Below, in pieces: positions 1-36,624 of a stretch of 48,119 bases of DNA. Positions within the stretch are counted from its first letter, which is position 1; every line of letters begins with the position of its first letter. Location of the stretch: positions 1-48,119 of the forward strand of contig JBKKAU010000228.1 of assembly GCA_046714475.1 (NCBI GenBank). The letters run 5' to 3'. Origin of the DNA: Thermoanaerobaculia bacterium (GTDB lineage: Bacteria; Acidobacteriota; Thermoanaerobaculia; Multivoradales; UBA5704). The position numbers were made by a program, and so were the translations under genes. The notes below the pieces were generated by a model. That model searched no databases. It was not told the origin of the DNA and saw nothing but the letters and a program-made list of their open reading frames with translations.

Positions 1-156
1 GTACAGCAGCACCGTACAGGCGCCGCACTCGCCCTCGCCACACCCCTCCTTGGTGCCGGTCAGCCCGAGCCCCTCCCGGACTACGTCGAGGAGGCGCTCC
101 ATCGGGTGGCCGTCGTGCTCGACGGCACGGCCGTTGATCGACAAGGGCACCTTCAT
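1..156 (-). CDS. (2Fe-2S)-binding small subunit of a xanthine dehydrogenase/CO dehydrogenase-family molybdoenzyme (first 52 codons only; gene runs off the window start)
   Basis: Hand translation of the minus strand from ATG at 156-154 gives MKVPLSINGRAVEHDGHPMERLLDVVREGLGLTGTKEGCGEGECGACTVLLY. CGEGECGACTV is the classic first 2Fe-2S cysteine cluster of CoxS-type small subunits. ATGA start/stop overlap with the upstream large subunit (153-156). Confidence 0.8.
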   Translation of the reverse strand, partial: MKVPLSINGRAVEHDGHPMERLLDVVREGLGLTGTKEGCGEGECGACTVLLY

Positions 157-2384
157 GTCATCCCTCTCAGCAGCTTCTCCGGAGTCGCCGGGATCTCGTC
201 CACCAGGATTCCCAGGGCGTTTTCGACCGCCTGCACGGCCGCCGGGGCGCCGCCGTCCATGGGCAGCTCGCCGACCCCCTTCGCTCCGAAAGCGCCGAAG
301 GAGCCGCCTTCCCAGGCCCGCTCCAATAGGTGGACGTCCATCCGCGGGCTGTCCTGGATCGTCGGGATGATGTAGGTGGCGAGACGGTCGTTGAGATAGC
401 GGCCGTCCTGGAGCTTGACCTCTTCCATCAGCGCCCAGCCGATCGCCTGGAGGGTGCCGCCCTCGATCTGCCCGGCGCACAGCACCGGATGGATTGCCTT
501 GCCCACCTCGCAGACCGCGGTGACCTGGATCGGATGGACGGACAGCGTGTCGGGGTCGACCTCGACCTCCACCACGTCCGCGCCCCAGGCGTAGGTGGGG
601 TAGGCGGCGCCGCGGTAGGTGGACTCGTCGAACGTCTGCCAATCGGGCGGCTCGTGACGCGTCGTGACCTCCACCGGTCCGGCCGCCTGCCGGAACGCCT
701 GGGCCGCCTCGCGGAAGGGCTCGACCGGACCCTTGGGACCCACGATCCAGCCGTTCTGCACGGAAAAACCTTCTCCCCAGGGCGCGAGGACGCGGTCGCG
801 GAGCTCGATCACGGCGCGAGCGATGGCGCCGCCGACGATCATGGTGGTCCGCGAAGCGACCGTGGGGCCGGAGTCGGGGACCTGGCTCGTATCCGGCTCG
901 GCGAAGACGAGGTCGTCCGGACCGACCCCGGCCGCGGTGGCGGCGATCTGGGGAAAGACCGCGACACATCCCTGGCCCATGTCGGTCATGGCGGTGAGCA
1001 CCTCGATGCGGCCGTCCTCCAGGAGACGGGCCGCGACCGGCGACCGCATCTTGCGCTCGCCGTTGCCGGTAAACCCGGCGCCGTGGAAGTAGAGGGAGAG
1101 GCCGACCCCCCGCCGGGGCTCGCCGTCCTTCGCGCTTTCCCGCGCCTGTTCCAGGGCCTTCCAGCGGGCGCGGAACCCGGTCCGCCTCTCCACCTCCTCC
1201 AGGCAGAGGCGGGCCGAGGTGCTGGGGTCGAGCACCTGACCGGTGGGCAGCCGGTCTCCGGGATCGACCACATTCCGGGCGCGGATTTCAAAAGGATCGA
1301 GCCCGAGCTCGCGGGCGACGCGGTCCATCTGGCGCTCGATCGCGAACTCCACCTGCGGCGCTCCGAACCCCCGGAAGGCGCTGTTCGGCGCGGTGTGGGT
1401 GCGCAGCACGCGGCCGCGGATACGGACCGCGGGCCAGCGGTAGGGACCGAAGGAGTGGAGGAGGGCGCGCGAGAGCACCACCGGCGAAAGGGTCGAGTAG
1501 GCGCCGCCGTCGAAGAGGATGTCGGCGTCCAGGGCGAGCAGCCGGCCGTCGCGGTCGACCCCCGTCCGGTGGCGGATGACCGACGGGTGGCGCTTCGACG
1601 TGCTGACGATGTCCTCGTTGCGGTCGTAGACGATTTTCACCGGCCGGCCGGCGGCGCGGGCGAGCAGGGCGGCGTGGAGGGCGATGGCGCTGGGGAAGTC
1701 CTCCTTGCCGCCGAAGCCGCCGCCCACCACCGAGGCGCGCACCCGCACCCGGTCCTCCGGCAGGCGGAAGGCGTGGACCAGCGCCTTGTGGACGTAGTAC
1801 GGGCACTGCATGGAGCCGAGGACGTTCAGGGTGTCGTCCTCGAACCAGGCGATCATCCCCTGGCATTCGATGTAGATGTGCTCCTGGTGCCCGGTCCGGG
1901 ACTCCCCCTCGACCACCCGGTCGGCGGCGGCCAGGGCGGCCTCGACGTCGCCGTTCTCCAGGCGGAGCTCGTAGAGCGGCGGCAGCGCTTCGGCCTCGGC
2001 CAGCGTCAGGGCCGGAGCGAGCGGCTCGTACTCGACAGAGACGGCGGCGAGCGCCTGCCGGGCCTGGAGCCGCGTGGGCGCCGCCACCAGCGCGACCGGC
2101 TCGCTGACGTGGAGGGTCATCCGGTCGGCCAGGATCGGCCAGCCGTCGTCCAGGAGCTGGACCCCGTTGGGTCCCGGCAGGTCCGCGGCGGTGACGAAGA
2201 CCGTCCCTGGGGGAGCGAGAGCCGGATCAAAGCGGATGGACCGGACGTGGGCGTGAGGATGGGGGCTGCGGACGGTGGCGCCGTGCCACATCCCGGGCAG
2301 CGAGACGTCGTCGACGTAGCGGGCCGCTCCCGAGACCTTGGCGAACCCGTCAGGACGGGGAGGGCTCTCTCCGATGCCGCTCAT
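153..2384 (-). CDS. Molybdopterin-binding large subunit, xanthine dehydrogenase/aldehyde oxidase family
   Basis: 743-aa ORF. The N-terminus PRPDGFAKVSGAARYVDDVSLPGMWHGATVRSPHPHA and the length are typical of the a/b-hammerhead plus Mo-cofactor binding subunit. Translationally coupled to the 2Fe-2S subunit. Confidence 0.85.
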   Translation of the reverse strand: MSGIGESPPRPDGFAKVSGAARYVDDVSLPGMWHGATVRSPHPHAHVRSIRFDPALAPPGTVFVTAADLPGPNGVQLLDDGWPILADRMTLHVSEPVALVAAPTRLQARQALAAVSVEYEPLAPALTLAEAEALPPLYELRLENGDVEAALAAADRVVEGESRTGHQEHIYIECQGMIAWFEDDTLNVLGSMQCPYYVHKALVHAFRLPEDRVRVRASVVGGGFGGKEDFPSAIALHAALLARAAGRPVKIVYDRNEDIVSTSKRHPSVIRHRTGVDRDGRLLALDADILFDGGAYSTLSPVVLSRALLHSFGPYRWPAVRIRGRVLRTHTAPNSAFRGFGAPQVEFAIERQMDRVARELGLDPFEIRARNVVDPGDRLPTGQVLDPSTSARLCLEEVERRTGFRARWKALEQARESAKDGEPRRGVGLSLYFHGAGFTGNGERKMRSPVAARLLEDGRIEVLTAMTDMGQGCVAVFPQIAATAAGVGPDDLVFAEPDTSQVPDSGPTVASRTTMIVGGAIARAVIELRDRVLAPWGEGFSVQNGWIVGPKGPVEPFREAAQAFRQAAGPVEVTTRHEPPDWQTFDESTYRGAAYPTYAWGADVVEVEVDPDTLSVHPIQVTAVCEVGKAIHPVLCAGQIEGGTLQAIGWALMEEVKLQDGRYLNDRLATYIIPTIQDSPRMDVHLLERAWEGGSFGAFGAKGVGELPMDGGAPAAVQAVENALGILVDEIPATPEKLLRGMT

Positions 2385-2449
2385 CCGGCCGAGTCTTTAC
2401 CAAGCACGGGGGGTTGCGCAAGGGTGGGGGGCGAAGAGGTCGAGCGCCA

Positions 2450-2659
2450 TCAAGCGGCAGCGCCGCTGTGTCTCTTGTACAGAAAACTCTCCAGATCTGT
2501 GCGCTCCTGGGCATGCTCGATAGTAAGCGCCACCAGCTGGCCGTCCGCATCCATCTCGATCAAGGTGTTCTCGTCGAGATCGCGGGTATCGGCCACGCTT
2601 TTGTCCTTGAAAGTGATCTGCAGAGTGTCGGTGTCCTCGAAGTACTCAACTCGCATCAT
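2450..2659 (-). CDS. DUF2283-like small protein, third gene of the hicAB transcription unit
   Basis: 69-aa ORF MMRVEYFEDTDTLQITFKDK...LIEMDADGQLVALTIEHA matches my recollection of the DUF2283 family. 4-nt overlap with hicB (2656-2659). Confidence 0.65.
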   Translation of the reverse strand: MMRVEYFEDTDTLQITFKDKSVADTRDLDENTLIEMDADGQLVALTIEHAQERTDLESFLYKRHSGAAA

Positions 2660-2877
2660 GCGACCTCTTGCATTGGCCGGACACGGGGAGCAGGAAGAGG
2701 TCGTCCTTCGACCTCGAAGTGTTGGATGATGTCTTCGATCACCTCGTGGAGCTCCGCATAGAGGCTGACAGGGTCATCTCCATGGATCCCGGTCATCAGA
2801 TCAGGGCACTTCCCGAGGTAGGCAGAGTCTTCCTCGCTCCATTCAACCCACTTATGGTATCGGTCGCTCAGCTTCAT
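2656..2877 (-). CDS. hicB: Type II antitoxin, HicB family
   Basis: 73-aa ORF. The pattern YHKWVEWSEEDSAYLGKCPDLMTGIHGDDPVSLYAEL is characteristic of short HicB antitoxins. 4-nt overlap with hicA. Confidence 0.8.
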   Translation of the reverse strand: MKLSDRYHKWVEWSEEDSAYLGKCPDLMTGIHGDDPVSLYAELHEVIEDIIQHFEVEGRPLPAPRVRPMQEVA

Positions 2878-3077
2878 CCCTGCACCTCCTCGATGGCTCG
2901 CCTGACTTGGCTTTCCTGATAAGGCTTTGCGTCATCGCCAGGGCTCCCGCTGAGGGTGACTGCGCCAGGATACCGGACATGTGTGAACTTACGGTGAGAC
3001 CCCTTTCCGCCTCCTGGAATCTCATAGAAGTCGGCATCGAGCAGGTTCCGCACCAGTTCCCTGACCTTTCTTGGCAT
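2874..3077 (-). CDS. hicA: Type II toxin, HicA family mRNA interferase
   Basis: MPRKVRELVRNLLDADFYEIPGGGKGSHRKFTHVRYPGAVTLSGSPGDDAKPYQESQVRRAIE is a textbook HicA (YcfA-like) pattern. The ORF is open to 3095 (MGDEGG extension), but the ATG at 3077 matches family N-termini. Confidence 0.8.
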   Translation of the reverse strand: MPRKVRELVRNLLDADFYEIPGGGKGSHRKFTHVRYPGAVTLSGSPGDDAKPYQESQVRRAIEEVQG

Positions 3078-3134
3078 GCCCCCCTCGTCCCCCATCAGCG
3101 AATTATAGGCCCCAGCGCGAGGCCTTCCGGGGTT

Positions 3135-3929
3135 TCAGCTGACAGGCGAGAACAGATCGACCGGCACTCCGGTGTCTGACCCGAAGTAGGAGCGGGAGTT
3201 GGCCCCTGGGAGCGCGAAGCCGTTGATGGCGATGCGCCGGGGCTGAGCGCCGCGGTTCTCCTCGCTGCGGTGGACCACGTAGGGGCCGAAGAAGGCGGCG
3301 CTTCCCGCCTTGAGGAGCGCGGGGAGGCCGGGCCGATCCCGGTAGCTGCTTCGCACCGAGGCCGGGTCGAGGTGCCCCTGTTGCCCACTGCCCGGGTAGA
3401 AGATGAGCGGACCGTTGTCGGGGGTCGTGTCGTCGATCGCGACCACGGTTTGGATGTAGCTGCCCCGCCCGTCGACGTCGCGCCACTCGGGGGTGCCGTA
3501 GCGGCGGTGCTCGCTGTCCTGATGAGGCTCGAATTCCAGCCCGTCGTTCGGGTACTTGGCGTGGAGCTGATTGAGAAGGTGAACCGCCGTGGACGAGCCG
3601 AAGAGCTGGCCGACGATCGCGGTGAGCCGCACGTCGCGCCCGCAGGCGAGGAACGCCGGCTCGCAGCCTCCCGCCCAGACGACCCGCAGCAGCCGGCGCG
3701 GTCCGTTCGAGCCGCTGAAGACGAACTGGCTGCCGGCGTGCTCGACCTTGGTTTCCCCCTCCTCGTCACTCTCGGGGAGCGGCGCGGCGAGCTCTCTCCC
3801 CACCGCGCGCAGCCGTTCCGTGGCCTCGGCCATCTCCGAGACCTCCTCGCGCGAGAAAAGCCCTTCGACGATGAGGAAACCGTCATCGTAGAAACGCCGG
3901 ATGGCGGCTGGGGACAGCTCGTGAATCAT
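3135..3929 (-). CDS. Phytanoyl-CoA dioxygenase (PhyH) family Fe(II)/2-oxoglutarate oxygenase
   Basis: 264-aa ORF. It has the N-terminal FYDDGFLIVEGLFSREEV motif, the HQDS facial-triad region, DDTTPDNGPL and a late VVHRSEEN His, as in PhyH-family proteins. Confidence 0.8.
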   Translation of the reverse strand: MIHELSPAAIRRFYDDGFLIVEGLFSREEVSEMAEATERLRAVGRELAAPLPESDEEGETKVEHAGSQFVFSGSNGPRRLLRVVWAGGCEPAFLACGRDVRLTAIVGQLFGSSTAVHLLNQLHAKYPNDGLEFEPHQDSEHRRYGTPEWRDVDGRGSYIQTVVAIDDTTPDNGPLIFYPGSGQQGHLDPASVRSSYRDRPGLPALLKAGSAAFFGPYVVHRSEENRGAQPRRIAINGFALPGANSRSYFGSDTGVPVDLFSPVS

Positions 3930-4025
3930 AGGAGGATTGAATTATAGCAGAACGCGCAAAGGCGCCGGTCTCAGCGCATCGGCCCAGCTGCGGACCACCC
4001 TCTGTGTGCTAACGTCTTGATTCTT

Positions 4026-4358
4026 ATGGATCCCCATCGGCTCGCGGAAGAGAGGAGCGTCGCATACCACGGCGCTATCGCCGAACGCCTGCGGCATCAG
4101 CTGGAGGTTCTAGAGAATGCGCGCCGGCGCGTCCAGACGTGGTTGGCCTCCGACGGCGCACCCTTTTACGCCCGGAAGTGGGCGGAGGTCCTGGCGGGCG
4201 ACCCCTCTTCCATCGCGGCCTTCCTTGTCGACCGGAGCGAGCTTGCGGACGAGCTCCGCCAGTCGAGCCCGTTCGCCGGGGCCTTACAACCCCAGGAGCG
4301 GTGGAAGATCTGGCGTGAGACCCGGGAGCGCTTACTTGGCGCTGCCAGGGATCTATGA
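4026..4358 (+). CDS. Conserved-looking hypothetical protein (110 aa)
   Basis: ORF open from TTG 4017; the ATG at 4026 gives MDPHRLAEERSVAYHGAIAERL...LRQSSPFAGALQPQERWKIW. The composition is helical and protein-like, but I cannot assign a family name. Confidence 0.45.
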   Translation: MDPHRLAEERSVAYHGAIAERLRHQLEVLENARRRVQTWLASDGAPFYARKWAEVLAGDPSSIAAFLVDRSELADELRQSSPFAGALQPQERWKIWRETRERLLGAARDL

Positions 4359-4540
4359 ACCGGATCACGCTCGGCTGAAAAGGCTGTCCCGCGGCGATCC
4401 GCCACGAAGACCTCGTCGGCCCGGCCTTCCGGCGCATGGAAGAGCTCGCCGCCCGCCACGTCGAGCCGCCGCAGACGTTCATTGCGTCCGAAGACGACGA
4501 GTAAGAGCCCCCCGCTCTCCTCCGCATCCCGGCACGTCTT

Positions 4541-4559
4541 GAGAGAACGGCGTTCTCTC
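4541..4559. promoter_or_regulatory. Perfect 8+3+8 palindrome GAGAGAAC-GGC-GTTCTCTC, 36 nt upstream of the TerB-gene start
   Basis: Read directly: 4541-4548 gagagaac, 4549-4551 ggc, 4552-4559 gttctctc. It lies in the 236-nt gap preceding the three-gene module, so it is a candidate operator or 5'-UTR hairpin. Confidence 0.3.
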
Positions 4560-4594
4560 GATAAGCTTGTCGTGTCTCCTGAGGGAATGTCGTC

Positions 4595-6685
4595 ATGAGC
4601 AAACGCAAGCACAAGGGGGCTGGTTGCCCCGGGGACCGGTTCTGGGTGCCGGCGGGCAGAACCGTCGAGGTGGCGGGTTACTGGATCGACGGCATGGTGT
4701 ACGGTGGCGCGGGGCTCGGCCCGGTAGCCCGGGGGCGCCTCCCGGCGGAGCCCGCGCTCCTCAATCCTCTCCTCCCGGTAGCCCGGAGGGGGCGCCCCTC
4801 GGCACAGCCGCTGGAGCCCCGCCCCTCGTACTTCCGGATGCTCCCGTCGCAACGGGCTGCTTATCTACGGTGGCTGGAAGGGGGCCGGAAGGACCCGACG
4901 GTCGACATCGGTTTCGTCTTCCTCTTCTTCTCCGGTATCGAGCGGCGCGTCCTCGTGGATGCCGGGTCCTCGGACCGGGCGCGGGGCGACGTGCCCGGCC
5001 TGATCGCCGAGGCCGAGCGTCTGCTGGACATCTACGGAGGCAACTCCTTCTTCAGCTACTATGCGGAGCCCTTCCTTTTCCTCGCCCGCCTGCTGTCCCG
5101 GTCGGTCGACGTCACGAAGCTCACTCCGCCCCCGAGACCGATCTACAGGAGCCGCTTCCTCCCCCTGACCGTCAGGGTCGCCCTCGGAGCGTTCGCGGCG
5201 CGGGGCCAGCGGATACCGCCGGAGTGGGCCTACGCCTGGGCCAGCCACGCGCCGGACATCCGCCTGGGAGCGCCGGCTGATCGCACTCCGGACGAGTTCG
5301 AGGCGGCTTTCAAGCTCCGTTACACGAAGTCCTTTCCCGGCGGCGGGCTCAGGATCAGCCCTAACCCCAAGCCTTCGTCAGTCCTGTACTTCCCGGTGAG
5401 TCCGTCTTTTTTTGGCCCGGTCTCGGTCCAGGTCAAAAACCTGCCGAGAGAGTTGGACCTGGCGTTCTGCCGGCGCCAGCTCCAAGAGGTCGTGAACCAG
5501 GTCGCCAGCGACCTGCGCGCCTACAGTCTGCGAACGACAATGGCCAGTTGGCGCGGGAGCCCGGCGACGGTCGCTCTCCTCCCGGCGGAGCTGGCGCGGC
5601 TCTGGGACAGTCGGGAGCTCCAGACGTTCTTCGCCTGGCTCGAAAAGGAGCTGGCCGGCGGCGAGCCCGCCCCGTTGCCGGCCGGCGACCTGATCCGGCG
5701 CTGGACCCGGGGCGCGGTGACGCGGCTCGTCCGTGGCGACGCCGAGAGGTTGGCGTCCTTCCTCGGACGCCGCGGGTACGGGATGGAGCCGGACGTCCGC
5801 TTCGGCGGTCCTCTGCCCGACGGCGCGGGCAAGGCGCCGGTGGTCCTGTTCCGGCAGACCGCGGAAGAGGACGGGGAGCGAAAGCCGAGCCTCTCGTACC
5901 AGGCCGCCGCCGTCCTCCTGCAGCTGGCGGTGACGCTCGCGGTGGCCGACGGTCCGGTGAACGATGCCGAGGAGCGCTACCTGCTCGCCTACTTCGACAC
6001 CACCGCTCACCTCCCTCTGGACGAGCGCAAGCGGCTCGCCGCGCACCTGATCCGGATCATGACGGAGCCGCCCGGGCTCGTCGGCCTCAAGCAGCGGATC
6101 GCGACGCTTGCCGAGGAGCAGCGCCGGGCGATCCTCCGCTTCCTGATCGTGTTGGCCGAAGCGGACGGCTCCGTCCAGGCCGAGGAGCTCAAGCTGCTGC
6201 GCCGGATCTACGCCTTGCTCGGGCAGGACCGCCAGTCCCTCTACTCCGACGTCCACGCCGTGGCGAGCGCGCTGGAGCCCGTGACCGTGCGGCCGGCGGG
6301 CGCCGGAGCGGACGGCTTCGCCATCCCCCCCGCCTCCCCGGGAGCCGGCATCGCCCTCGACGAAGCCAGGATCCGGACCCGGCTCGCCGAGACCGAGGAG
6401 ATCGCCGGGATCCTCGACGCGATCTTTCGCGAGGAGGAGGCCCCCGGGCCGCCGCCCGTCGCCGGGCTCGACGGGGCGCACTCGGCGTTCCTGCGGCGGC
6501 TGGCGGAGAAGCCGGCCTGGGAGCGGGCGGAGGTCGAGCGGCTCGCGGCGGGCCTCGCCCTGCTGCCCGACGGCGCGCTCGAAACCCTCAACGAGACGGC
6601 GTTCGAAAGTTGTGGAACCCCCCTCCTGGAGGGGGACGAAATCCTTGTGATCGACAACCAGGTTCTCCAGGAGATGCTGGCATGA
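4595..6685 (+). CDS. sngA: TerB-N / TerB / TerB-C multidomain protein (Shango SngA-type)
   Basis: 696 aa.
- TerB-N-like N-terminus: PSYFRMLPSQRAAYLRWLEGGRKDPTVDIGFVFLFFSGIERR.
- Two TerB-like helical units: LAVADGPVNDAEERYLLAYF and LAEADGSVQAEELKLLRRIY.
- TerB-C-like tail: LDGAHSAFLRRL...LPDGALETLNETAFE.
ATGA overlap with the next gene. Confidence 0.8.
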   Translation: MSKRKHKGAGCPGDRFWVPAGRTVEVAGYWIDGMVYGGAGLGPVARGRLPAEPALLNPLLPVARRGRPSAQPLEPRPSYFRMLPSQRAAYLRWLEGGRKDPTVDIGFVFLFFSGIERRVLVDAGSSDRARGDVPGLIAEAERLLDIYGGNSFFSYYAEPFLFLARLLSRSVDVTKLTPPPRPIYRSRFLPLTVRVALGAFAARGQRIPPEWAYAWASHAPDIRLGAPADRTPDEFEAAFKLRYTKSFPGGGLRISPNPKPSSVLYFPVSPSFFGPVSVQVKNLPRELDLAFCRRQLQEVVNQVASDLRAYSLRTTMASWRGSPATVALLPAELARLWDSRELQTFFAWLEKELAGGEPAPLPAGDLIRRWTRGAVTRLVRGDAERLASFLGRRGYGMEPDVRFGGPLPDGAGKAPVVLFRQTAEEDGERKPSLSYQAAAVLLQLAVTLAVADGPVNDAEERYLLAYFDTTAHLPLDERKRLAAHLIRIMTEPPGLVGLKQRIATLAEEQRRAILRFLIVLAEADGSVQAEELKLLRRIYALLGQDRQSLYSDVHAVASALEPVTVRPAGAGADGFAIPPASPGAGIALDEARIRTRLAETEEIAGILDAIFREEEAPGPPPVAGLDGAHSAFLRRLAEKPAWERAEVERLAAGLALLPDGALETLNETAFESCGTPLLEGDEILVIDNQVLQEMLA

Positions 6686-8031
6686 CGGAACCCCAGAATG
6701 GAACTTCGACGCAACGGCCGATCCGCCCGCGCGACCGTGACGCGATCCTCCAGTCGCTGCGCGCCGGCGTGGTGCCGCGCCGCGGACATCAGTACATCCA
6801 GGTCGGCCGGTCGGACGAGGTGCGGGCGTTGCTCCAGGACCTCGACCGCATCGCCGACGGCGGCTCGGCGATCCGCTTCGTCATCGGCGAATACGGCTCC
6901 GGCAAGACGTTTTTCCTCTTCCTGATCCGCGCGATCGCCCTGGAGAAGGGGCTGGTCACCGCCCACGCCGACTTGAACCCCGACCGGCGCCTGCACGCCA
7001 CCGCCGGCCAGGCCCGTTCGCTCTACGCCGAGCTGATGGCCAACCTCGCGACCCGGACCAGGCCGGACGGCGGCGCCGTGGCCAGCGTCGTCGAGCGCTT
7101 CGTCACCTCCGCTCTGCAGACAGCCCGGGACGAAGGCATTGCCGTCGGCGCCGTTCTCCAGGACCGGCTGGCGAGGTTGTCGGACATGGCCGGGGGGTAC
7201 GACTTCGCCGAGGTGGTCGCCGCCTACTGGCGGGGGCACGACGAGGGGGACGACCGGCTCAAGTCCGACGCCGTCCGCTGGCTGCGCGGCGAGTACTCCA
7301 CCCGCACCGACGCCCGCAAGGCGCTCGGCGTCCGCACCATCATCGACGACGACAACCTCTACGATCAGCTCAAGCTCTTCGCGCGCTTCGTGCGGCTCGC
7401 GGGCTACGGCGGCCTGCTGCTCTGCCTCGACGAGCTGGTGAACCTCTACAAGCTCGCCAACACGCAGGCGCGCAGCAGCAACTACGAGCAGATCCTGCGC
7501 ATCCTGAACGACAGCCTCCAAGGGGCGAGCGTCGGGCTCGGCTTCGTGATGGGCGGCACCCCCGAGTTCCTGCTGGATACCCGCCGCGGGCTCTACAGCT
7601 ACGAGGCGTTGCGGTCCCGTCTCTCCCAGAACCGCTTCGCGGCCGACGGCCGGCGGGACCTCACCGGCCCGGTGCTCTCGCTCGCCAACTTGAGCCCCGA
7701 GGAAATGTACGTGCTGCTCCGCAACCTGCGCCACGTTCACGCCTCCGGCGAGCCCGCGCAGTACCTGCTCCCCGACGAGGCGCTCGTCGCCTTCATGGAG
7801 CACTGCTCGCAACGCCTCGGCGAGGCCTACTTCCGCACCCCGCGCAGCACCACCCGCGCCTTCCTGGAGCTGCTCGCCGTCCTCGAGCAGAACCCGGACG
7901 CCGGCTGGCGCGAGCTGCTCGGCGCCGTCGAGGTGGCGCCGGAATCCAACCCCGACCTCGAGCCGCTGCCGGAGGGCGGCGCGGCGTCCGCTCCCGTGGG
8001 AGACGACGAGCTGGCGTCGTTCAAGCTGTAG
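6682..8031 (+). CDS. sngB: P-loop ATPase of the DUF2791/BrxD-like type (Shango SngB-type)
   Basis: The ATG at 6682 overlaps the sngA stop (6683-6685). 449 aa. It starts MTEPQNGTSTQRPIRPRDRDAILQSLRAGVVPRRGHQYIQVGR, has Walker A GEYGSGKTF and Walker B-like LLLCLDELVNL. The listed 5548..8031 ORF is an upstream read-through of the same frame. Confidence 0.8.
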   Translation: MTEPQNGTSTQRPIRPRDRDAILQSLRAGVVPRRGHQYIQVGRSDEVRALLQDLDRIADGGSAIRFVIGEYGSGKTFFLFLIRAIALEKGLVTAHADLNPDRRLHATAGQARSLYAELMANLATRTRPDGGAVASVVERFVTSALQTARDEGIAVGAVLQDRLARLSDMAGGYDFAEVVAAYWRGHDEGDDRLKSDAVRWLRGEYSTRTDARKALGVRTIIDDDNLYDQLKLFARFVRLAGYGGLLLCLDELVNLYKLANTQARSSNYEQILRILNDSLQGASVGLGFVMGGTPEFLLDTRRGLYSYEALRSRLSQNRFAADGRRDLTGPVLSLANLSPEEMYVLLRNLRHVHASGEPAQYLLPDEALVAFMEHCSQRLGEAYFRTPRSTTRAFLELLAVLEQNPDAGWRELLGAVEVAPESNPDLEPLPEGGAASAPVGDDELASFKL

Positions 8032-8034
8032 GCG

Positions 8035-10278
8035 ATGGCGGCGACCTCGTCGGCCTTCCACCTCCTGCACCCAAAGGTCCGGAAGTGGCTCTGGGATCAA
8101 GGGTGGGATGAGCTGCGAGGCTTTCAGGAGGAGGCGATCCCCGCCGTGCTGGAGGGACAGGGCGACCTCGTGATCGCCGCTTCCACCGCCGCAGGCAAGA
8201 CGGAAGCGGCCTTCCTCCCCATCCTCACGGCCCTCGCCGACGATTTCGGGGGGAGCGTCCGCACCCTGTACGTCAGTCCACTCAAGGCGCTGATCAACGA
8301 TCAGTTCGACCGGCTCGAGCGGCTCTGCGAAGAGCTGGAGGTGCCGGTCGCCCGCTGGCACGGGGACGTCGCCGCCTCCCGGAAGCGGAAGGTGCTCGAC
8401 CATCCCGAGGGGATTCTGATCATCACGCCGGAGTCGCTGGAGGCCCTGTTCGTCCGCCAGGGGCCGAAGGTCCGTCCGCTGTTCGAGCGGCTCGCCTTTG
8501 TCGTCGTCGACGAGTTGCACGCCTTCCTCGGCACCGAGCGCGGCCGGCAGCTCCAGTCGCTGCTCCATCGGGTCGAGCTGGCGGTCCGCCGCCGCGTCCC
8601 CCGCATCGCGCTCTCGGCGACGCTCGGCGACCTGTCGCTCGCCTGCGAGTTCTTGCGCCCCGGAGGAGGGGAGGCGGTGCGGCGCATCGTCTCGGCGGCG
8701 AGCGGGCAGGAGCTCAAGGTCCAGGTGCGCGGCTACCGGGTCGTTCCTCCCCGGCTCTCCGCCGCGCAGGCGGAGGCGATGGAAGCCGCGGGCCAGCCGC
8801 CTTCCCTGGAAGACCTGGTCGAAGGCGACGCCCTGGAGATCAGTCTCCACCTCTTCGACAAGCTGCGCGGCGGCCATCACTTGATCTTCGCCAACTCGCG
8901 CGCCAACGTGGAGCTGTTCGCGGACCTGCTGCGCCGGCACTGCGAGACCCGGGGCATCCCGAACGAGTTCTGGGCGCATCACGGCAGCCTCTCCCGCGAG
9001 CTGCGCGAGGAGGCGGAGGCGGCGATCAAGGACCGGGCGCGGCCGGCGAGCGCGGTCTGCACCACGACCCTTGAGTTGGGCATCGACGTCGGCGCGATCG
9101 AGAGCGTGGCCCAGGTCGGCCCGCCGCCGTCGGTCGCCAGCCTGCGCCAGCGCCTCGGGCGGTCCGGCCGCCAGGGCGGGGCCGCGGTCCTGCGCGCCTA
9201 CGTCCGGGAGCCGGAGATCGGCAAGGACGTGGCGCCGCAGTGGAGCCTGCGCTCTGACCTCGTCCAGACGGTCGCGGCGGTCCAGCTCCTCGTCGCCGGC
9301 TGGTGCGAGCCGCCGGAGCCGGCGGCGCTCCATCTCTCGACGCTGGTCCAGCAGCTCCTGTCGGCGATCGCGCAGCATGGGAGCCTCCGCGCCGACCAGG
9401 CCTGGCGGGCCCTATGCCGCGACGGCGCCTTCCCGGGCGTCGACCAGGCGCTTTTCGCGGAGCTGCTGCGGAGCCTCGGCGGTCGCGAGCTGGTCCGGCA
9501 GGTGCACTCGGGCGAGCTGGTACTGGAGCTCACGGGGGAGCGGATCGTCAACCACCACGAGTTCTACGCCGCCTTCGCGACCTCGGACGAGTTCCGGCTG
9601 ACCAGCGGCGGCCGCACCCTGGGCACGCTGCCGATCTCCTATCCGCTGTTCCCCGGGCTCTGCATCGTCTTCGCGGGCCGCCGCTGGGAGGTGGTGTCCG
9701 TGGACGTGGAGCACAAGGTCGTGGACCTCAAGCCGGCCTTCGGCGCGCGTCTGCCCGGCTTCGAGGGGACGCGGGGAGCGGCGGTTCACGACCGGGTACG
9801 GCGGGAGATGCTCGCGGTCTACCGCTCCGCGTCCATGCCCGCCTTCCTGGACGCCCGGGCGCGCGACCTCCTCGCAGAAGGGCGCGGCCACTTCGCCCGT
9901 CTCGGGCTGGGAGAGCACCGCGTCCTCGGCGACGGCTCGGACACTCTCCTCTTCTGCTGGCGCGGCGACCGGGTGCTCGACACCCTGTCGGTCTGGCTCA
10001 ACGAGCGAGGTTTCAAGGTGGCGCAGGAGGGGGTGGCGCTGGTCCTGGACGGCGCCGATCCCGTGGAGGTCCGCCGCGAGCTGACCCGTCTCGCCGGCCA
10101 GGAACCTCCCGATCCCCTGGACCTCGCGGCCTCGGTCGTCAACAAGAGGACGGAGAAGTTCCACCCCTACCTGACCGACGAGCTCCTCGCCACCGACTGG
10201 GCGAGCAGCCGGATCGACGTGCGCGGGGCCTGGGAAACGATGCGGGAAGTCGCGGGCTCGGGCAGATCGGGAACATAG
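8035..10278 (+). CDS. sngC: SF2 DEAD/DExH-box helicase, Lhr/BrxHI-like (Shango SngC-type)
   Basis: 747 aa. Motif I AASTAAGKTEAAFLP, motif Ib LYVSPLKALINDQ, motif II VVVDELHAF, helicase C motifs (TTTLELGIDVG, QRLGRSGR) and a long Lhr-like C-terminal extension. Starts 3 nt after the sngB stop. Confidence 0.85.
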   Translation: MAATSSAFHLLHPKVRKWLWDQGWDELRGFQEEAIPAVLEGQGDLVIAASTAAGKTEAAFLPILTALADDFGGSVRTLYVSPLKALINDQFDRLERLCEELEVPVARWHGDVAASRKRKVLDHPEGILIITPESLEALFVRQGPKVRPLFERLAFVVVDELHAFLGTERGRQLQSLLHRVELAVRRRVPRIALSATLGDLSLACEFLRPGGGEAVRRIVSAASGQELKVQVRGYRVVPPRLSAAQAEAMEAAGQPPSLEDLVEGDALEISLHLFDKLRGGHHLIFANSRANVELFADLLRRHCETRGIPNEFWAHHGSLSRELREEAEAAIKDRARPASAVCTTTLELGIDVGAIESVAQVGPPPSVASLRQRLGRSGRQGGAAVLRAYVREPEIGKDVAPQWSLRSDLVQTVAAVQLLVAGWCEPPEPAALHLSTLVQQLLSAIAQHGSLRADQAWRALCRDGAFPGVDQALFAELLRSLGGRELVRQVHSGELVLELTGERIVNHHEFYAAFATSDEFRLTSGGRTLGTLPISYPLFPGLCIVFAGRRWEVVSVDVEHKVVDLKPAFGARLPGFEGTRGAAVHDRVRREMLAVYRSASMPAFLDARARDLLAEGRGHFARLGLGEHRVLGDGSDTLLFCWRGDRVLDTLSVWLNERGFKVAQEGVALVLDGADPVEVRRELTRLAGQEPPDPLDLAASVVNKRTEKFHPYLTDELLATDWASSRIDVRGAWETMREVAGSGRSGT

Positions 10279-10337: not shown

Positions 10338-10373
10338 GGCCTGACGGAGTGCGTGAGATTATTCCGTCAGGCC
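10338..10373 (+). terminator. Stem-loop downstream of the helicase gene (possible terminator)
   Basis: GGCCTGACGGA (10338-10348) pairs perfectly with TCCGTCAGGCC (10363-10373) around a 14-nt loop. There is no clear U-tract, so function is uncertain. Confidence 0.35.
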
Positions 10374-10437: not shown

Positions 10438-10731
10438 CGACGAACGCGCTGCCCCGGGTCACCGACGGTCCGGACCGGGGTGCGGACGGTTGTGAGACGC
10501 AAGCGGGAGGTTCGCACCCGCTTCGCGGCGGTTCGCCCCGGTTTCCGGACGGTTCGGAGCTGGCTCCGGACGGTTGGGATCTCGGGGCGAACCGTCCGCT
10601 CCGAGATGCGAACGGTCGAGATCTTGATGCGAACCGTCCGCCCCGAGCTCCCGAGGGCTGCGAAACGGATCCGAACCGTCCGCCCCGAGTTGCGGACGGT
10701 TGGGAACTCGGTGCGAACCGTCCGCCCCGAG
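10438..10731. repeat. Tandem array of a 42-bp unit: 4 well-conserved copies plus about 3 degenerate ones, each with an internal dyad
   Basis: The core (G/C)CGAACCGTCCGC(C/T)CCGAG occurs at 10587-10605, 10629-10647, 10671-10689 and 10713-10731, exactly 42 bp apart. Units at 10564-10605 and 10690-10731 also carry the inverted partner (C/G)CGGACGGTT, which forms 9-11 bp dyads. Upstream units (10438-10563) are degenerate. Confidence 0.85.
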
Positions 10732-10841
10732 ATTCAAAGGGCGGCGATTCGTCTCGCAACCATCCAGACCTGGCTCCCGGAGGTCCGGATCGCGGGGCCG
10801 GCCGCTAGGCCGTATCCGCGGCTGTCCATATACTCCCGCCG

Positions 10842-11800: not shown

Positions 11801-12055
11801 ATGGCGAGGCAAGCAGTTCTTTCTCTAGACGACGACGTTGCGGCTCTCCTTGATGTGGAGGCTCAGCGTAAGGGTTGTCCTGTGGATGAGGTTCTGAACA
11901 ACCATCTGCGGCAGAGCCTGGAGACGCCGACTCACCGGAAGATCGAAGGTGGCCATTTCAGGGTGCCGGCCAAACCTCTGCAGGCGCATCCTGGCATCGA
12001 CTTCGACGACGTTGAAGGGCTGCTCGAAAAGCTCGAGACCCGTGATCCTCGTTGA
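11801..12055 (+). CDS. vapB: VapB-like antitoxin
   Basis: 84 aa from ATG 11801 (the ORF is open from TTG 11765). MARQAVLSLDDDVAALLDVEAQRKG is an RHH/antitoxin-like N-terminus. Overlaps the PIN gene by 14 nt. Lower G+C than the flanks by eye. Confidence 0.55.
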   Translation: MARQAVLSLDDDVAALLDVEAQRKGCPVDEVLNNHLRQSLETPTHRKIEGGHFRVPAKPLQAHPGIDFDDVEGLLEKLETRDPR

Positions 12056-12469
12056 CGCCAACCTCTTCATCTACGCCCACGATCTAACGAGCCCATTTCA
12101 CACCCCGGCTCGGCGGTGGATGGAGCAGGTTTTCTCAGGTACCGAGCCTATCCGCCTGTCGTGGACAAGCCTGCTCGCATTTTTGAGAATCACGACTCAC
12201 GCACGCGTATTCGCCAATCCCTTCTCGCTTGAAGAAGCCCTCCAAGCTGTCGAATACTGGCTTTCCCAACCATGTATGGACCTGCTACAGCCAGGGCAGG
12301 CTCATCCCGAGATCCTGTCCTCTCTCCTCCGGAAGACTCAGGTCACTGGCCCTCTCGTTATGGACGCCCATCTGGCTGCCCTGGCTATTGAGCATGAAGC
12401 AGTGCTCTATTCGACCGATAAAGACTTCGATCAATTTCCGGGTCTCCGCCGAGTCAACCCGCTCGCGCT

Positions 12470-12473
<4 letters not shown>
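12042..12473 (+). CDS. vapC: PIN-domain toxin (VapC family)
   Basis: GTG 12042 gives (M)ILVDANLFIYAHD..., followed by a later MDAHLAALAIEHEAVLYSTDKDF. These are the conserved acidic positions and layout of VapC. Confidence 0.8.
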
Positions 12474-14365: not shown

Positions 14366-17224
14366 TCAGCCGCCGGACGCGGCGACGGCCACCGCGGCGG
14401 GTCCATCCACTGTCAGCGGGGTGGGCGGGGCCGACAGCTCGTAGGCGCCCTCCCGCCGCAGGTCGTAGATGACGATCGCCTCGGCGGCGTGGTTTGCCGC
14501 CGGGCTTTTCGTCCGGGCGATGGCGATGGCGCGGTCGCGCGCCTGGTCGTCCGGCCGGTAGACGTTGAAGGCTTTGAGGTGCCGGGCCGCCTGCTCCTTG
14601 TCGCCGAGTTGCCTGTAGACCAGGTGCAGGTTGTAGTGCGCGGTGGCGTTCTCGGGGTCGAGCGTCAGGGTTTTCTCGAAAAGGTCACGGGCTTCGGAGA
14701 GCAGGGCGTCACGGCGCGTCCGGCGGGCGTCGCCACGCTCCTGGCGGGCGCGCTCGATCAGCGTCTGTCCGAGCTCGTTCAACAGGCGGTAGTCCTTGGA
14801 GAAGTCGAAACCCCGCTGGCGCATCTCCTCGGTGTCGGCCTGGATCAGGCTGCGGAAGTTGGTGATCGCCTCGTCGAGGAAGCCGTTCTGCTTGTTGACC
14901 TGGCCGGTGAGCCAGGCGACGGTCCATTGCGGCGCGGGCGGATCGAACGAGGCGGCGCGGCTCAGGGCCTCGACCGCCTTGTCCTGCACCGTGCCCTGCT
15001 CGATGTAGACGCGGGCCCGGTTCAACGGGCCGTCCGGCCGGCCGAGCGCCTCGACCTGGGAGAAAGCCTCCTCGGCCTGGCGCAGCTCGCCCTTGCTCTT
15101 GCCCCCCTTGAGCAGCAGGCCGATGCCGTAGTCGTTCCAGCGCTGCCTGGGCTCGACCGGCAACTCCGCGTTGGTGGGCCTGGCGGAGGAGCCGGCGACG
15201 GGGAAGGTGATCCGATCGGCCGCCAGCGTCATGACCGGCAGGTCGTTCTCGAAATCCTTGCCGAAGACGTGCTTCATGTAGCGGGTGTCGAACTTCCGGT
15301 ACTGGAGCTTGACCTCGACGGTGACCGGCTCGCGCACGTCCTTGGGGAGGTCCAGGCGGTAGTGGATGACGTCGGCCGCCCCCGGCGGGATCTGGTGGTT
15401 GTAGAGCGGGACGAAGATGTCCTCGGGGTTCCGCCGGTCGATGCGGTTGCCGTTCCGGTCGAGCATGTAGACGTTGACGAAGTGCGACCAGGGGTCGACC
15501 TCGCGGTCCGGCCCGAAGCCGCCGCTCCTGCCGATGACCCGGCCGCCGCTGGTCGCGGTCACGTCCACCCAGACCTCGTTGGAGTCGGCGGTCCCCTGGG
15601 TGAAGGGGTGGCCGATCTTGAGCGTGCGGATCACGGCCTCCAGCAGGTAGGGCTTGCCGGGCTCCAGGGCGGGGACCTGGGGACGCAACGGCGCGGTCAG
15701 CTTGCCGTCGATCGTGCCGCCCTCCTTGACCCCGAAGAGGTCGACGCGCAGGACCCCCTCGTTGAACTTCTTGTGCTTCTCGTTGACCCACGCCGGCAGC
15801 TTGAGCAGGTGGGGGATCGCCGTGTTGGCCGACGGGAACATGTGGTCGCGGACCTTGAGCAGGCCGGAGTCGTCGTAGCTCTTGGCCGCGAAGTCCTCCG
15901 ACGCCATCGGCTGCATATGGCAGGAGGCGCAGTTCTCGCTGGCTTTGGCCGGATAGTAGAAGCTGGCGACGCCGTGGCCGGACGCGCCGGAGAGCAGGAA
16001 CGTGTCGTAGTGGTTCTGGCCGCGCAGCCACTTGTAGTGGTTGAGCTCGGGCGGCAGGTGGACCTTGTGGCAACTGCCGCAGAACTCGGCCGTGCGGTGC
16101 AGCGGCTTCAAGAACGTCTTCTTGTGGAACTCGGGCTTGGCCTTGACGAGCTGCCGGTTGACCCACTGCAGGGTCTGGCTCTGGCTGAACGCGAACGGAT
16201 AGTGGATCGGCTCCTCGATCGTGTAGTCGGCGTTGCCGCGCGGGCTGTTGACGTGGGTGATCGAGTGGCAGGCCGAGCAGGTGAGCCCGGCCTGGCCGGC
16301 CGGGTCGTGGACGTCGTCGAACTTCGGGTCGTCGAACTTGCCGCTGAAGAAGACCACCGGGTCGTGGCAGCCGGCGCAGAAGCGGGAGGCCTGGACGTCG
16401 CCGTCGCGCTTCAAGGACTGGGCGCGGGTCTGGCGGACCGAGAAGAGATAGGCCGGGTTGTTGAACGAGCTGAACCGGTGCGCGCTGTTCTGCCAGCCCT
16501 CGTGGACGTCCTGGTGGCACTGGGCGCAGTACTGGTTGTTCATCAGCGTCCGCGCCGGGATGAAGTTGCCGGTCGAGGTGCGGGCGAGCGACGGGAAGAA
16601 GTAGCGCTCGCCGGAGGCCGGGCCGGCGACGTTCCACTGCCGCGGGTCCTGCGCCTGGACGATCAGCAGGACGACGGCGAAGGCCCCGGCGACCGCGGCC
16701 CAGCGCAGGCCGACCTTCCACTTGATGCGTTTGCCGGCGAGGCGGTGGAGGATGAACAGCCAGACCGCCGCGAGGGGGCTCAGGACGTGGAGCCAGTAGG
16801 AGACCGATCGGACGGCCGGGTCCTTGACCACGATCACCCCGTCGATCCGGGTCAGGACGATGCCGCTCGCCAGCAGCACCAGGGCGGTCGCGAACAGCGA
16901 ATAGCCGACGAGGACGGCGCGCCGGTTTGGTCGGTTGTGGGCGTTGCGGATGTGGGCGACGCCGAAGGCGATCACCGGCACGACGATCAGCAGCCCCATC
17001 ACCAGATGGAGCAGGAACATGTACATGTAGAACCAGTTCTGGTACGTCTTGCCGGTGACCCATTCGAGGAACGTCGTGCTCGCCAGGTAGGTCGAATTGA
17101 CCGCCAGCAGCGCGAACAGGCCGAAGACGACGAAGAGCAGCTTCTTCAACCGGGGTCCCACGGCGGGGAGGTACTTCCTCTTGCGCGGCGGCGTGGGTTG
17201 GCTGGGAGTCTCTGGTTCCATCAT
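14366..17224 (-). CDS. Membrane-anchored multihaem (5 x CxxCH) c-type cytochrome with C-terminal TPR domain
   Basis: Start taken at MMEPETPS (17224); the 14366..17554 ORF extension is Arg/Pro-rich. About 4-5 N-terminal TM helices. CAQCH, CAGCH, CSACH, CGSCH and CASCH are present. The C-terminal third has TPR-like repeats (AHYNLHLVYRQLGDKEQAARHLKAF). 21-nt gap to the CRTAC1 gene. Confidence 0.8.
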   Translation of the reverse strand: MMEPETPSQPTPPRKRKYLPAVGPRLKKLLFVVFGLFALLAVNSTYLASTTFLEWVTGKTYQNWFYMYMFLLHLVMGLLIVVPVIAFGVAHIRNAHNRPNRRAVLVGYSLFATALVLLASGIVLTRIDGVIVVKDPAVRSVSYWLHVLSPLAAVWLFILHRLAGKRIKWKVGLRWAAVAGAFAVVLLIVQAQDPRQWNVAGPASGERYFFPSLARTSTGNFIPARTLMNNQYCAQCHQDVHEGWQNSAHRFSSFNNPAYLFSVRQTRAQSLKRDGDVQASRFCAGCHDPVVFFSGKFDDPKFDDVHDPAGQAGLTCSACHSITHVNSPRGNADYTIEEPIHYPFAFSQSQTLQWVNRQLVKAKPEFHKKTFLKPLHRTAEFCGSCHKVHLPPELNHYKWLRGQNHYDTFLLSGASGHGVASFYYPAKASENCASCHMQPMASEDFAAKSYDDSGLLKVRDHMFPSANTAIPHLLKLPAWVNEKHKKFNEGVLRVDLFGVKEGGTIDGKLTAPLRPQVPALEPGKPYLLEAVIRTLKIGHPFTQGTADSNEVWVDVTATSGGRVIGRSGGFGPDREVDPWSHFVNVYMLDRNGNRIDRRNPEDIFVPLYNHQIPPGAADVIHYRLDLPKDVREPVTVEVKLQYRKFDTRYMKHVFGKDFENDLPVMTLAADRITFPVAGSSARPTNAELPVEPRQRWNDYGIGLLLKGGKSKGELRQAEEAFSQVEALGRPDGPLNRARVYIEQGTVQDKAVEALSRAASFDPPAPQWTVAWLTGQVNKQNGFLDEAITNFRSLIQADTEEMRQRGFDFSKDYRLLNELGQTLIERARQERGDARRTRRDALLSEARDLFEKTLTLDPENATAHYNLHLVYRQLGDKEQAARHLKAFNVYRPDDQARDRAIAIARTKSPAANHAAEAIVIYDLRREGAYELSAPPTPLTVDGPAAVAVAASGG

Positions 17225-36447: not shown

Positions 36448-36624
36448 GTCTCCTCCTGTCCCTGATCACTCGTCATGGCTTCAGGCGATCCACGCGGCCA
36501 GATGTTACCGATCCGCTGAAAAGACCAAGGAGAACCTGACGGCGAGTCGTAGATCGGGAACTCGGCACGTATAGACAGAACCGCGGCGGCGGTGTATCGT
36601 TGCCGCGTTCTCTCTTCCCGTGCC

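Follow-up and report, generated by a model that had tools for sequence, protein, structure and literature searches.

A probable complete Shango (SngABC) anti-phage system on the chromosome of a Thermoanaerobaculia bacterium

Three co-directional genes in a metagenome-assembled genome (MAG) of a Thermoanaerobaculia bacterium (Acidobacteriota; assembly GCA_046714475.1, contig JBKKAU010000228.1) encode a TerB-domain protein, a P-loop ATPase and an Lhr-like helicase, and the question they raise is whether they constitute a complete copy of the anti-phage system Shango, a piece of a BREX (bacteriophage exclusion) system, or a module with a housekeeping role. We analysed the 48,119 nucleotides of this contig, referred to here as the window, in which the genes, here called sngA, sngB and sngC, had been described in an original prediction as a Shango-type (SngABC) defence module. 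Our analysis indicates that they are very probably an intact copy of the known Shango family and, with only slightly less assurance, we predict that they form a complete and functional anti-phage system on the chromosome of this bacterium.

The best PADLOC matches of the three proteins are the corresponding Shango profiles, with E-values of 3.9e-62 for SngA (its sole PADLOC match), 6.5e-182 for SngB and 8.7e-264 for SngC, in agreement with the identity originally proposed. Pfam searches likewise bore out the predicted domain content, finding TerB_N, TerB and TerB_C in SngA, all above their gathering scores, PF10923 (BrxC_BrxD, 8.2e-156), which we take to be the family formerly named DUF2791, over the full length of SngB, and DEAD plus Helicase_C in SngC. 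As Shango requires, the genes are adjacent, co-directional and in A-B-C order, and the catalytic motifs of the ATPase and the helicase are intact, among them the GSGKT Walker A and DELH sequences already quoted in the original prediction. The gene boundaries given there also proved exact to the base, as did the ATGA at 6682-6685 that serves as both sngA stop and sngB start (4-nt overlap) and the 3-nt gap (8032-8034) within the sngB/sngC junction TAG-GCG-ATG. The sngA ATG at 4595, preceded by GAGGGA, is the first start codon downstream of an in-frame stop, so a longer SngA N-terminus is impossible, and the G+C content at third codon positions of the three frames (0.89-0.92) matches that of other real genes on this 69% G+C contig. 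The same coupled A-B-C layout is found in six further loci (L001, L003, L004, L054, L055 and L056), drawn from Acidobacteriota, Azospirillum, Klebsiella and a haloarchaeon, and the arrangement is therefore not due to chance; the Klebsiella, Azospirillum and haloarchaeal plasmid copies have an identical Pfam architecture and equally good Sng profile scores.

Experiments in E. coli and P. aeruginosa PA14 have validated Shango as an anti-phage system (PMC10250203; bioRxiv 10.1101/2022.05.11.491447). The system was named as a TerB-containing one by Millman et al. (2022, bioRxiv 10.1101/2022.05.11.491447), who suggested membrane surveillance, and the TerB/ATPase/helicase operon of PA14 conferred 10-100-fold protection (Johnson et al. 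2023, PMC10250203); the description of Shango in the original prediction agrees with both papers. The PA14 and E. coli operons resemble that of the window in their three genes, order, coupling and Pfam architecture, and the Klebsiella plasmid copy reaches 618 bits on the SngB profile and 936 on the SngC profile, against 604 and 876 for the window copy. The differences concern the host, here an uncultured bacterium, as well as SngA and the surroundings: window SngA is 26% identical to its enterobacterial counterpart and lacks the N-terminal extension of about 95 aa present there, and PA14 Shango lies in the hypervariable hotspot cDHS1 beside Shedu, whereas the window copy is solitary, native in composition and co-diverged with its flanks.

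On the basis of its sequence, SngB can be assigned to the BrxC/BrxD-family ORC/Cdc6-type AAA+ P-loop ATPases; a sequence search of the Protein Data Bank (PDB) returned no relative of SngB or of SngA, and an exact-protein look-up with SngB gave no match. For SngC, sequence and predicted fold agree on an Lhr-type superfamily 2 (SF2) helicase, which upholds the earlier "Lhr-like" label: the PDB sequence search retrieved Lhr (5v9x, 7lhl, ~1e-29) and MrfA, and the AlphaFold2 (AF2) model, built with 42 homologues (predicted local distance difference test, pLDDT, 88.4), matched the Mycobacterium smegmatis Lhr core 5v9x in Foldseek over essentially the whole chain (E 4.4e-28; query-normalised TM-score 0.70), with MrfA/YprA as the next match. 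RecA1 and RecA2 domains, a helical/winged-helix part and a small beta-barrel (aa 519-567) precede an Lhr-like alpha+beta C-terminal domain in the model, which contains no nuclease module or extra enzymatic domain. The helicase motifs are invariant in the 42 homologues. Compared with Lhr (M. smegmatis 5v9x/7lhl) and MrfA/YprA (6znp/6znq), the SngC model has the four-domain Lhr core and all SF2 motifs but lacks the long C-terminal extension of Lhr and the DUF1998 zinc module of MrfA, and the operon partners of sngC are TerB and ATPase genes instead of ligase or exonuclease genes. Published work places SngC, together with BrxHI, DruE and DpdJ, in an immune clade of SF2 helicases that stands apart (PMC12278908). 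A search of the PHROGs collection gave generic helicase matches only. In one SngC homologue, P0240 (1113 aa), the helicase is joined to an RNase_T-type exonuclease and a BRCT domain, a fusion that may be a clue to the missing nuclease activity.

SngA combines three Pfam domains with a conserved middle region, for which Pfam gave no match even when the region was searched in isolation; the invariant columns of the protein were drawn from 58 homologues, which also served for its AF2 model (pLDDT 88.5). When this model was compared with the PDB by Foldseek, matches were restricted to the TerB domain (2ou3, 2h5n; none at E <= 0.001), and TerB_N, the middle region and TerB_C are thus without detectable solved structural relatives; a Foldseek search of BFVD gave nothing significant. 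The order of helices and strands at aa 340-420 may point to a winged helix. No hydrophobic segment of transmembrane grade was found in SngA, the maximum Kyte-Doolittle value over 19 residues being 1.74, within a TerB helix. The window protein begins directly at TerB_N, and many relatives carry variable extensions before this domain, which include TM2 (in the haloarchaeon), HEAT repeats, DUF4236 and HIRAN. The haloarchaeal SngA (L055, 2146-4635) has the TM2 membrane domain at its N-terminus, and the Shango homologues P0094, P0102, P0089, P0077 and P0240 are listed as carriers of variable fusions. We also considered that the 696-aa SngA might contain an insertion relative to the 528-position profile, and rejected this, as the 769-aa Klebsiella SngA covers the same profile positions, which means that the profile merely skips variable stretches.

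TerB domains occur in other defence systems as well. Bunzi (BnzA) and Dionysus (DinB), for which membrane surveillance has also been proposed, pair TerB with transmembrane or pore-forming effectors, whereas in the window TerB forms part of a TerB_N/TerB_C protein whose partners are DNA motors. A 2025 preprint still terms the role of TerB in defence unclear, and TerB amphitropism and "membrane surveillance" are proposals of the literature (bioRxiv 10.1101/2022.05.11.491447; 2025 preprint). The locus also differs from the Ter (tellurite) operon, with its stand-alone TerB of ~150 aa and TerA/C/D/E/Z neighbours: here TerB is a domain of a 696-aa protein, and the genes nearby encode PhyH, a lipid kinase, toxins and antitoxins, and xanthine dehydrogenase.

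The closest SngA, 81% identical, comes from another Thermoanaerobaculia MAG, and the next-best matches are ~52-55% identical. An assembly made independently from run SRR31159442 matches the window at 100% identity across 1781-7358. The sister locus L001 (GCA_035546255.1) is syntenic with the window, with the order xanthine dehydrogenase, small genes, DUF2283, PhyH, sngABC, lipid kinase (DAGK/YegS type) and FG-GAP/ASPIC protein. The synonymous divergence (dS) between the two genomes is 0.23-0.30 for the Shango genes and 0.25-0.47 for the flanks, and this equality places the operon at its site since the two genomes split. Its G+C content is native (0.711 vs ~0.69 for the window). This Shango copy is a vertically kept, stable chromosomal resident and no fresh island. 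The original prediction had called for a comparison of the neighbourhood in sister genomes and took core synteny in all relatives as evidence against a defence module; synteny does hold in L001, which was the only informative sister genome in the collections searched. More distant Thermoanaerobaculia (L003, L004) carry Shango in other contexts, and the lipid-kinase gene was found, at 56-64% identity, in 12 Thermoanaerobaculia loci of which none keeps any of the window neighbours, so that these loci do not reveal whether the operon was gained or lost here.

Purifying selection acts on each of the three genes, although to different degrees. The ratio of nonsynonymous to synonymous divergence (dN/dS) relative to L001 is 0.10 for SngB, 0.17 for SngC and 0.39 for SngA, with 0.13-0.24 for the flanks, and within SngA it is 0.51 for TerB_N, 0.44 for the middle region, 0.27 for TerB, 0.13 for the linker and 0.19 for TerB_C, the last being the best-conserved part of the protein across the 58 homologues. 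Over larger distances the ranking is SngB > SngC >> SngA, with identities to the Klebsiella, Azospirillum and haloarchaeal copies of 58-62%, 42-49% and 26-35%, respectively. The concentration of SngA divergence in the N-terminal half fits a predicted division into a sensor half and a docking half. The SngA family is large, with at least 1670 clusters (50% identity, E <= 1e-30). SngB/SngC homologues are found on ~700 plasmid records, 541-556 of them conjugative, mostly from Klebsiella and Salmonella, and at large scale Shango is clearly accessory and mobile.

Pfam searches of the three proteins and Foldseek searches of the SngA and SngC models revealed no recognisable nuclease or other toxic effector domain, which limits the candidates for the effector step to the helicase and factors of the host. 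Within this limit, a mechanism can be sketched whose steps we hold, one by one, to be possible but short of probable. SngA might act as sensor and scaffold, with the fast-evolving N-terminal half (TerB_N and the middle region) meeting a phage-derived cue. An amphitropic TerB with its acidic motifs would probably, if this tentative picture is right, place SngA at the inner membrane face, where phage DNA enters. The slowly evolving C-terminal half (TerB, linker and TerB_C) could conceivably dock the SngB-SngC pair, and SngB might then spend ATP to load or license SngC on DNA, as has been proposed for BrxD/BrxHI. By analogy with Lhr, SngC may be a 3'-to-5' translocase or helicase that moves along single-stranded phage DNA, or along intermediates of replication and recombination, and takes them apart, a suggestion that we put forward with equal reserve. 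The outcome, on the same speculative footing, would be a block of phage DNA replication without a dedicated nuclease, which host nucleases may complete.

Several points weigh against the reading of the operon as a functional anti-phage system acting in this manner. The mechanistic steps are all ones that we infer, and the literature searched yielded no mechanism for Shango; the anti-phage activity of this particular copy is itself a prediction. As no nuclease is present, the system lacks a defined step by which phage would be killed or blocked. This SngA is devoid of a transmembrane segment, a lipid anchor and the N-terminal extension of most family members, and its membrane association is hypothetical. 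A dN/dS of about 0.5 in its N-terminal half could arise from relaxed constraint rather than from an arms race, and the native G+C content, the stable synteny and the lack of neighbouring defence systems would also fit a housekeeping role.

Such a role, in which a membrane- or metal-linked TerB protein directs the Lhr-like helicase and the ATPase to damaged host DNA as a stress or DNA-repair module, seems improbable to us. The Ter and Lhr/MrfA families were initially described in stress and repair roles, and the closest solved relatives of SngC, Lhr and MrfA, are repair helicases; moreover, an operon of native composition (0.711 vs 0.69), at a site shared with the sister genome, with flank-equal dS, with strong purifying selection on SngB and SngC and with no other defence genes within 48 kb, is what this explanation would lead one to see. 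Against it, the components of the validated Shango system are the best profile matches by far, whereas SngC scores only 223 bits on the Lhr equivalog TIGR04121, with a cut-off of 850, and 183 on PRK13767, with a cut-off of 849. The close homologues in Thermoanaerobaculia stand in non-syntenic contexts, the operon is not near the lipid-kinase gene in the 12 other loci that carry this gene, the presence on ~700 plasmid records, of which about three quarters are conjugative, is typical of accessory immune genes, and a scaffold for repair would not be expected to evolve fast in one half only, as SngA does. We give a slightly smaller chance, still a low one, to Shango acting mainly on conjugative plasmids or other mobile DNA, or by abortive infection with an effector that is either unrecognised or supplied by the host, instead of by the helicase working on invader DNA. 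The homologues are frequent on conjugative plasmids, where they could serve plasmid competition, none of the three proteins has a recognisable effector domain and the published protection is modest, but the published assays show activity against phages and this copy lies on the chromosome, outside any recognisable mobile element; the sequence alone does not tell anti-plasmid, abortive and anti-phage modes apart.

The kinship with BrxD and BrxHI noted in the original prediction is genuine and raises the question of a BREX fragment or satellite, i.e. the BrxD-BrxHI dyad of type 2 or type 6 BREX. This pair consists of a tightly linked ORC/Cdc6 AAA+ protein and a helicase with an Lhr C-terminal domain, for which a loader role was proposed in a 2026 study (PMC12839542). 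The protein families of the type 2 (Pgl) pair match those of SngB and SngC, and PF10923 itself bears the name BrxC_BrxD; BrxHI aligns with SngC over its full length, end to end, and has the winged helix, small beta-barrel and Lhr-like C-terminal domain in common with the SngC model (PMC12839542). The PADLOC profiles BrxD (1.1e-45) and BrxHI (5.6e-118) both match the window proteins, but they rank second to the Sng profiles, which outscore them two- to four-fold in bits (603.5 for SngB vs 154.6 for BrxD; 875.6 for SngC vs 393.1 for BrxHI), and SngB reaches 152.5 bits on the NCBIfam BrxD equivalog NF033438, where the cut-off is 350. Pfam and PADLOC searches of the open reading frames (ORFs) of at least 120 aa on the 48-kb contig found no PglZ/BrxZ, PglX, BrxC or PglW; the partner is instead a TerB protein, and in 7/7 loci examined the pair is translationally coupled to the Shango-defining TerB_N/TerB/TerB_C gene. 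With neither the core genes nor a BrxD-equivalog score, the BREX explanation is effectively refuted, and we regard it as extremely improbable. The window locus also has no methyltransferase, which makes methylation-based self/non-self discrimination unavailable to it. We retain Shango as the identity of the operon, whose features are collected with those of its surroundings in Table 1.

Table 1. Features of the Shango operon and of its surroundings in the window (nucleotide positions are those of the window; residues are those of the protein named; identities are at the amino acid level to the sister locus L001).
Feature	Nucleotides	Residues	Strand	Remarks
HicA, HicB-like (73 aa), DUF2283 cassette	2450-3095		-	4-nt overlaps; G+C 0.576; HicA Pfam 3.7e-08
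Xanthine dehydrogenase				93% identity
PhyH				88% identity
Conserved operon leader	4528-4594		+	DNA homology to sister L001
Promoter-like hexamer TTGAGA	4539-4544		+	
Perfect 8-bp inverted repeat GAGAGAAC-ggc-GTTCTCTC	4541-4559		+	Overlaps promoter-like hexamers
Promoter-like hexamer GATAAG	4560-4565		+	TATAAG in sister genome
Shine-Dalgarno-like GAGGGA	4581-4586		+	
sngA	4595-6685		+	ORF of 696 aa; 81% identity
TerB_N	4649-5275	SngA 19-227	+	Pfam 1.6e-39
Middle region without Pfam family		SngA 228-441	+	Conserved; invariant GYGxEPDVRFGG at aa 394-405
TerB	5918-6235	SngA 442-547	+	Pfam 1.2e-14
Two ADGx5-6E motifs in TerB		SngA 451-460 and 523-531	+	Acidic
Linker		SngA, between TerB and TerB_C	+	Low confidence
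TerB_C	6461-6673	SngA 623-693	+	Pfam 1.1e-20
sngB	6682-8031		+	ORF of 449 aa; 95% identity
Walker A GEYGSGKT	6886-6909	SngB 69-76	+	
Walker B LLCLDE	7417-7434	SngB 246-251	+	
sngC	8035-10278		+	ORF of 747 aa; 93% identity
Motif I ASTAAGKT	8179-8202	SngC 49-56	+	
Motif II DELH	8509-8520	SngC 159-162	+	
SAT (motif III)		SngC 194-196	+	
QRLGRSGR (motif VI)		SngC 372-379	+	
Hairpin	10338-10373		+	14-bp stem, 8-nt loop; 60 nt past sngC stop
Repeat array	10451-10750			21- or 42-nt units carrying CGGACGGTT; Tandem Repeats Finder and repeat finder
CGGACGGTT, plus-strand sites	10483, 10546, 10567, 10693		+	All 4 mod 21
CGGACGGTT, minus-strand sites	10590, 10632, 10674, 10716		-	All 6 mod 21
Lipid kinase				90% identity
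VapB-like and VapC (PIN) pair	11801-12473		+	G+C 0.570; VapC TIGR00028 2.6e-35
FG-GAP protein				89% identity

At the borders of the operon, nucleotide homology with L001 starts ~66 nt 5' of the sngA ATG and ends just before the sngC stop, and the sequence upstream of the leader is unrelated between the two genomes. The inverted repeat of the leader is retained in the sister genome with one mismatch and may be a candidate operator, in a cassette that has no regulator gene; a consensus scan of the leader called no sigma-70 site, and promoter and operator roles for the leader elements are suggested by their sequence only. The hairpin downstream of sngC is present in both the minimum-free-energy and the centroid folds of the intergenic region, on either strand, and is a plausible candidate for an operon terminator or a 3'-end stabiliser; the terminator scan made no call there, since the hairpin is missing a T run.

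Beyond the hairpin, the 563 nt that follow sngC in the window include the repeat array mentioned in the original prediction, which repeat searches and 9-mer enrichment established as real: eight of the nine window copies of CGGACGGTT fall within 10483-10724, where 0.56 would be expected. Their strict 21-bp phase puts all sites on one helix face, as in arrays of protein-binding sites, and the array accordingly looks like a putative protein-binding platform. The intergenic region folds in excess of shuffled sequences on either strand (z = -5.7 and -5.5), which indicates symmetry at the DNA level and not a strand-specific RNA. The sister locus has an array of its own at 15714-15870, with eight direct 20-nt units (consensus ~CCGCAnnnGAGGACnnnnnn) that start within the last sngC codons, and it shows no sequence in common with the window array, no inverted repeats and no folding excess (z = 0.44). 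No tandem repeats were found 3' of sngC in L003, L004, L054, L055 or L056, and none of the comparison loci is enriched in the CGGACGGTT 9-mer. We rejected the array as a general part of Shango, given its absence from five other loci and the unrelated array in L001; it is a clade-specific neighbour and not a defining component, and its membership in the system is unproven. A dispersed repeat of the REP (repetitive extragenic palindromic) or MITE (miniature inverted-repeat transposable element) type was likewise rejected: the unit GAACCGTCCGCYCCGAG gave single chance-like matches in at least 120 metagenome loci and in 17 viral loci, none of the listed loci being multicopy. Rfam searches of the window and L001 yielded nothing at gathering score, the one miRNA match (E = 0.38) being meaningless. 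It is very unlikely, in our view, that the arrays 3' of sngC in both sisters are cis-acting partners of Shango in a four-part variant confined to this clade; such arrays could regulate the operon as a protein-binding platform, or offer the SngB-SngC motor a place to load or a decoy.

The original prediction had also placed the module in a possible defence island with HicAB, VapBC and low-G+C patches. The patches are real (0.576 and 0.570 vs ~0.69 for the window), and the name of a defence islet suits the toxin-antitoxin cassettes and the variable junctions, but Shango itself, with its native composition, shared site and flank-like dS, is a stable resident; among the adjacent genes, foreign composition and differences from the sister genome are confined to the toxin-antitoxin cassettes. 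In both pairs the toxin is supported by a profile, HicA by Pfam and the PIN-domain VapC by TIGR00028, whereas no Pfam or NCBIfam model matches the HicB-like and VapB-like partners, whose names derive solely from position and motif. L001, which keeps DUF2283, has no counterpart of HicA, the HicB-like gene or the window VapBC. The window VapBC sits between the lipid-kinase and FG-GAP genes, which abut in L001, and L001 has an unrelated ribbon-helix-helix (RHH)/PIN pair on the opposite side of the kinase; the region 3' of sngC there holds the array, a membrane ORF and a VapBC-like pair.

On the 5' side of sngA lie a 110-aa ORF (4026-4358) in the window and an M20 peptidase gene in L001. The ORF, on the plus strand, is a real gene of a ~108-aa family with 582 homologues, which are 73-90% identical among the 120 listed; the family has no match in Pfam, NCBIfam, PADLOC or PHROGs. 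In two loci (L195 and L196) the homologue overlaps a downstream DUF6036 (nucleotidyltransferase-like) gene by 4 nt, and this overlap suggests a toxin-antitoxin-like pair. No remnant of a DUF6036 partner was found beside the window ORF, and the gene is solo there and in L197. The sister locus further contains tandem repeats of 126/252 nt at 4972-5490, partly within a called 119-aa ORF (5156-5515); these repeats lie in a 3-kb segment, wholly absent from the window, that separates xanthine dehydrogenase from DUF2283.

Elsewhere on the contig, PADLOC searches of the ORFs of at least 120 aa found no further defence system, with the exception of matches to the UvrD-type GajB and RTasHel profiles and to PD-T4-6. 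The last is weak (1.3e-06) and falls on the kinase domain of an ABC1-kinase gene, and the rest of the contig is metabolic. The GajB and RTasHel matches are generic and belong to a 1071-aa fusion of an N-terminal PHP/TIGR00375-like part with a UvrD/PcrA-type helicase (36592-39807, plus strand) that has no GajA partner; the divergent gene upstream of it (35203-36447) matched no family.

Taken together, the operon is a canonical Shango from an under-sampled phylum, and what this copy adds is evolutionary, in its vertical residence and the rate asymmetry of SngA, as well as structural. These results will not surprise specialists, as Shango is widespread and validated, and its mechanism is left unsolved by this copy. 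They do, however, show SngB to be nearly frozen across bacteria and archaea, and the rate asymmetry points to the N-terminal half of SngA for trigger recognition and to its C-terminal half as the likely docking site of the motors. Finally, the residence of these genes at a shared chromosomal site indicates that, in an environmental phylum, Shango can persist on the chromosome by stable vertical inheritance, beyond its occurrence as hotspot or plasmid cargo.

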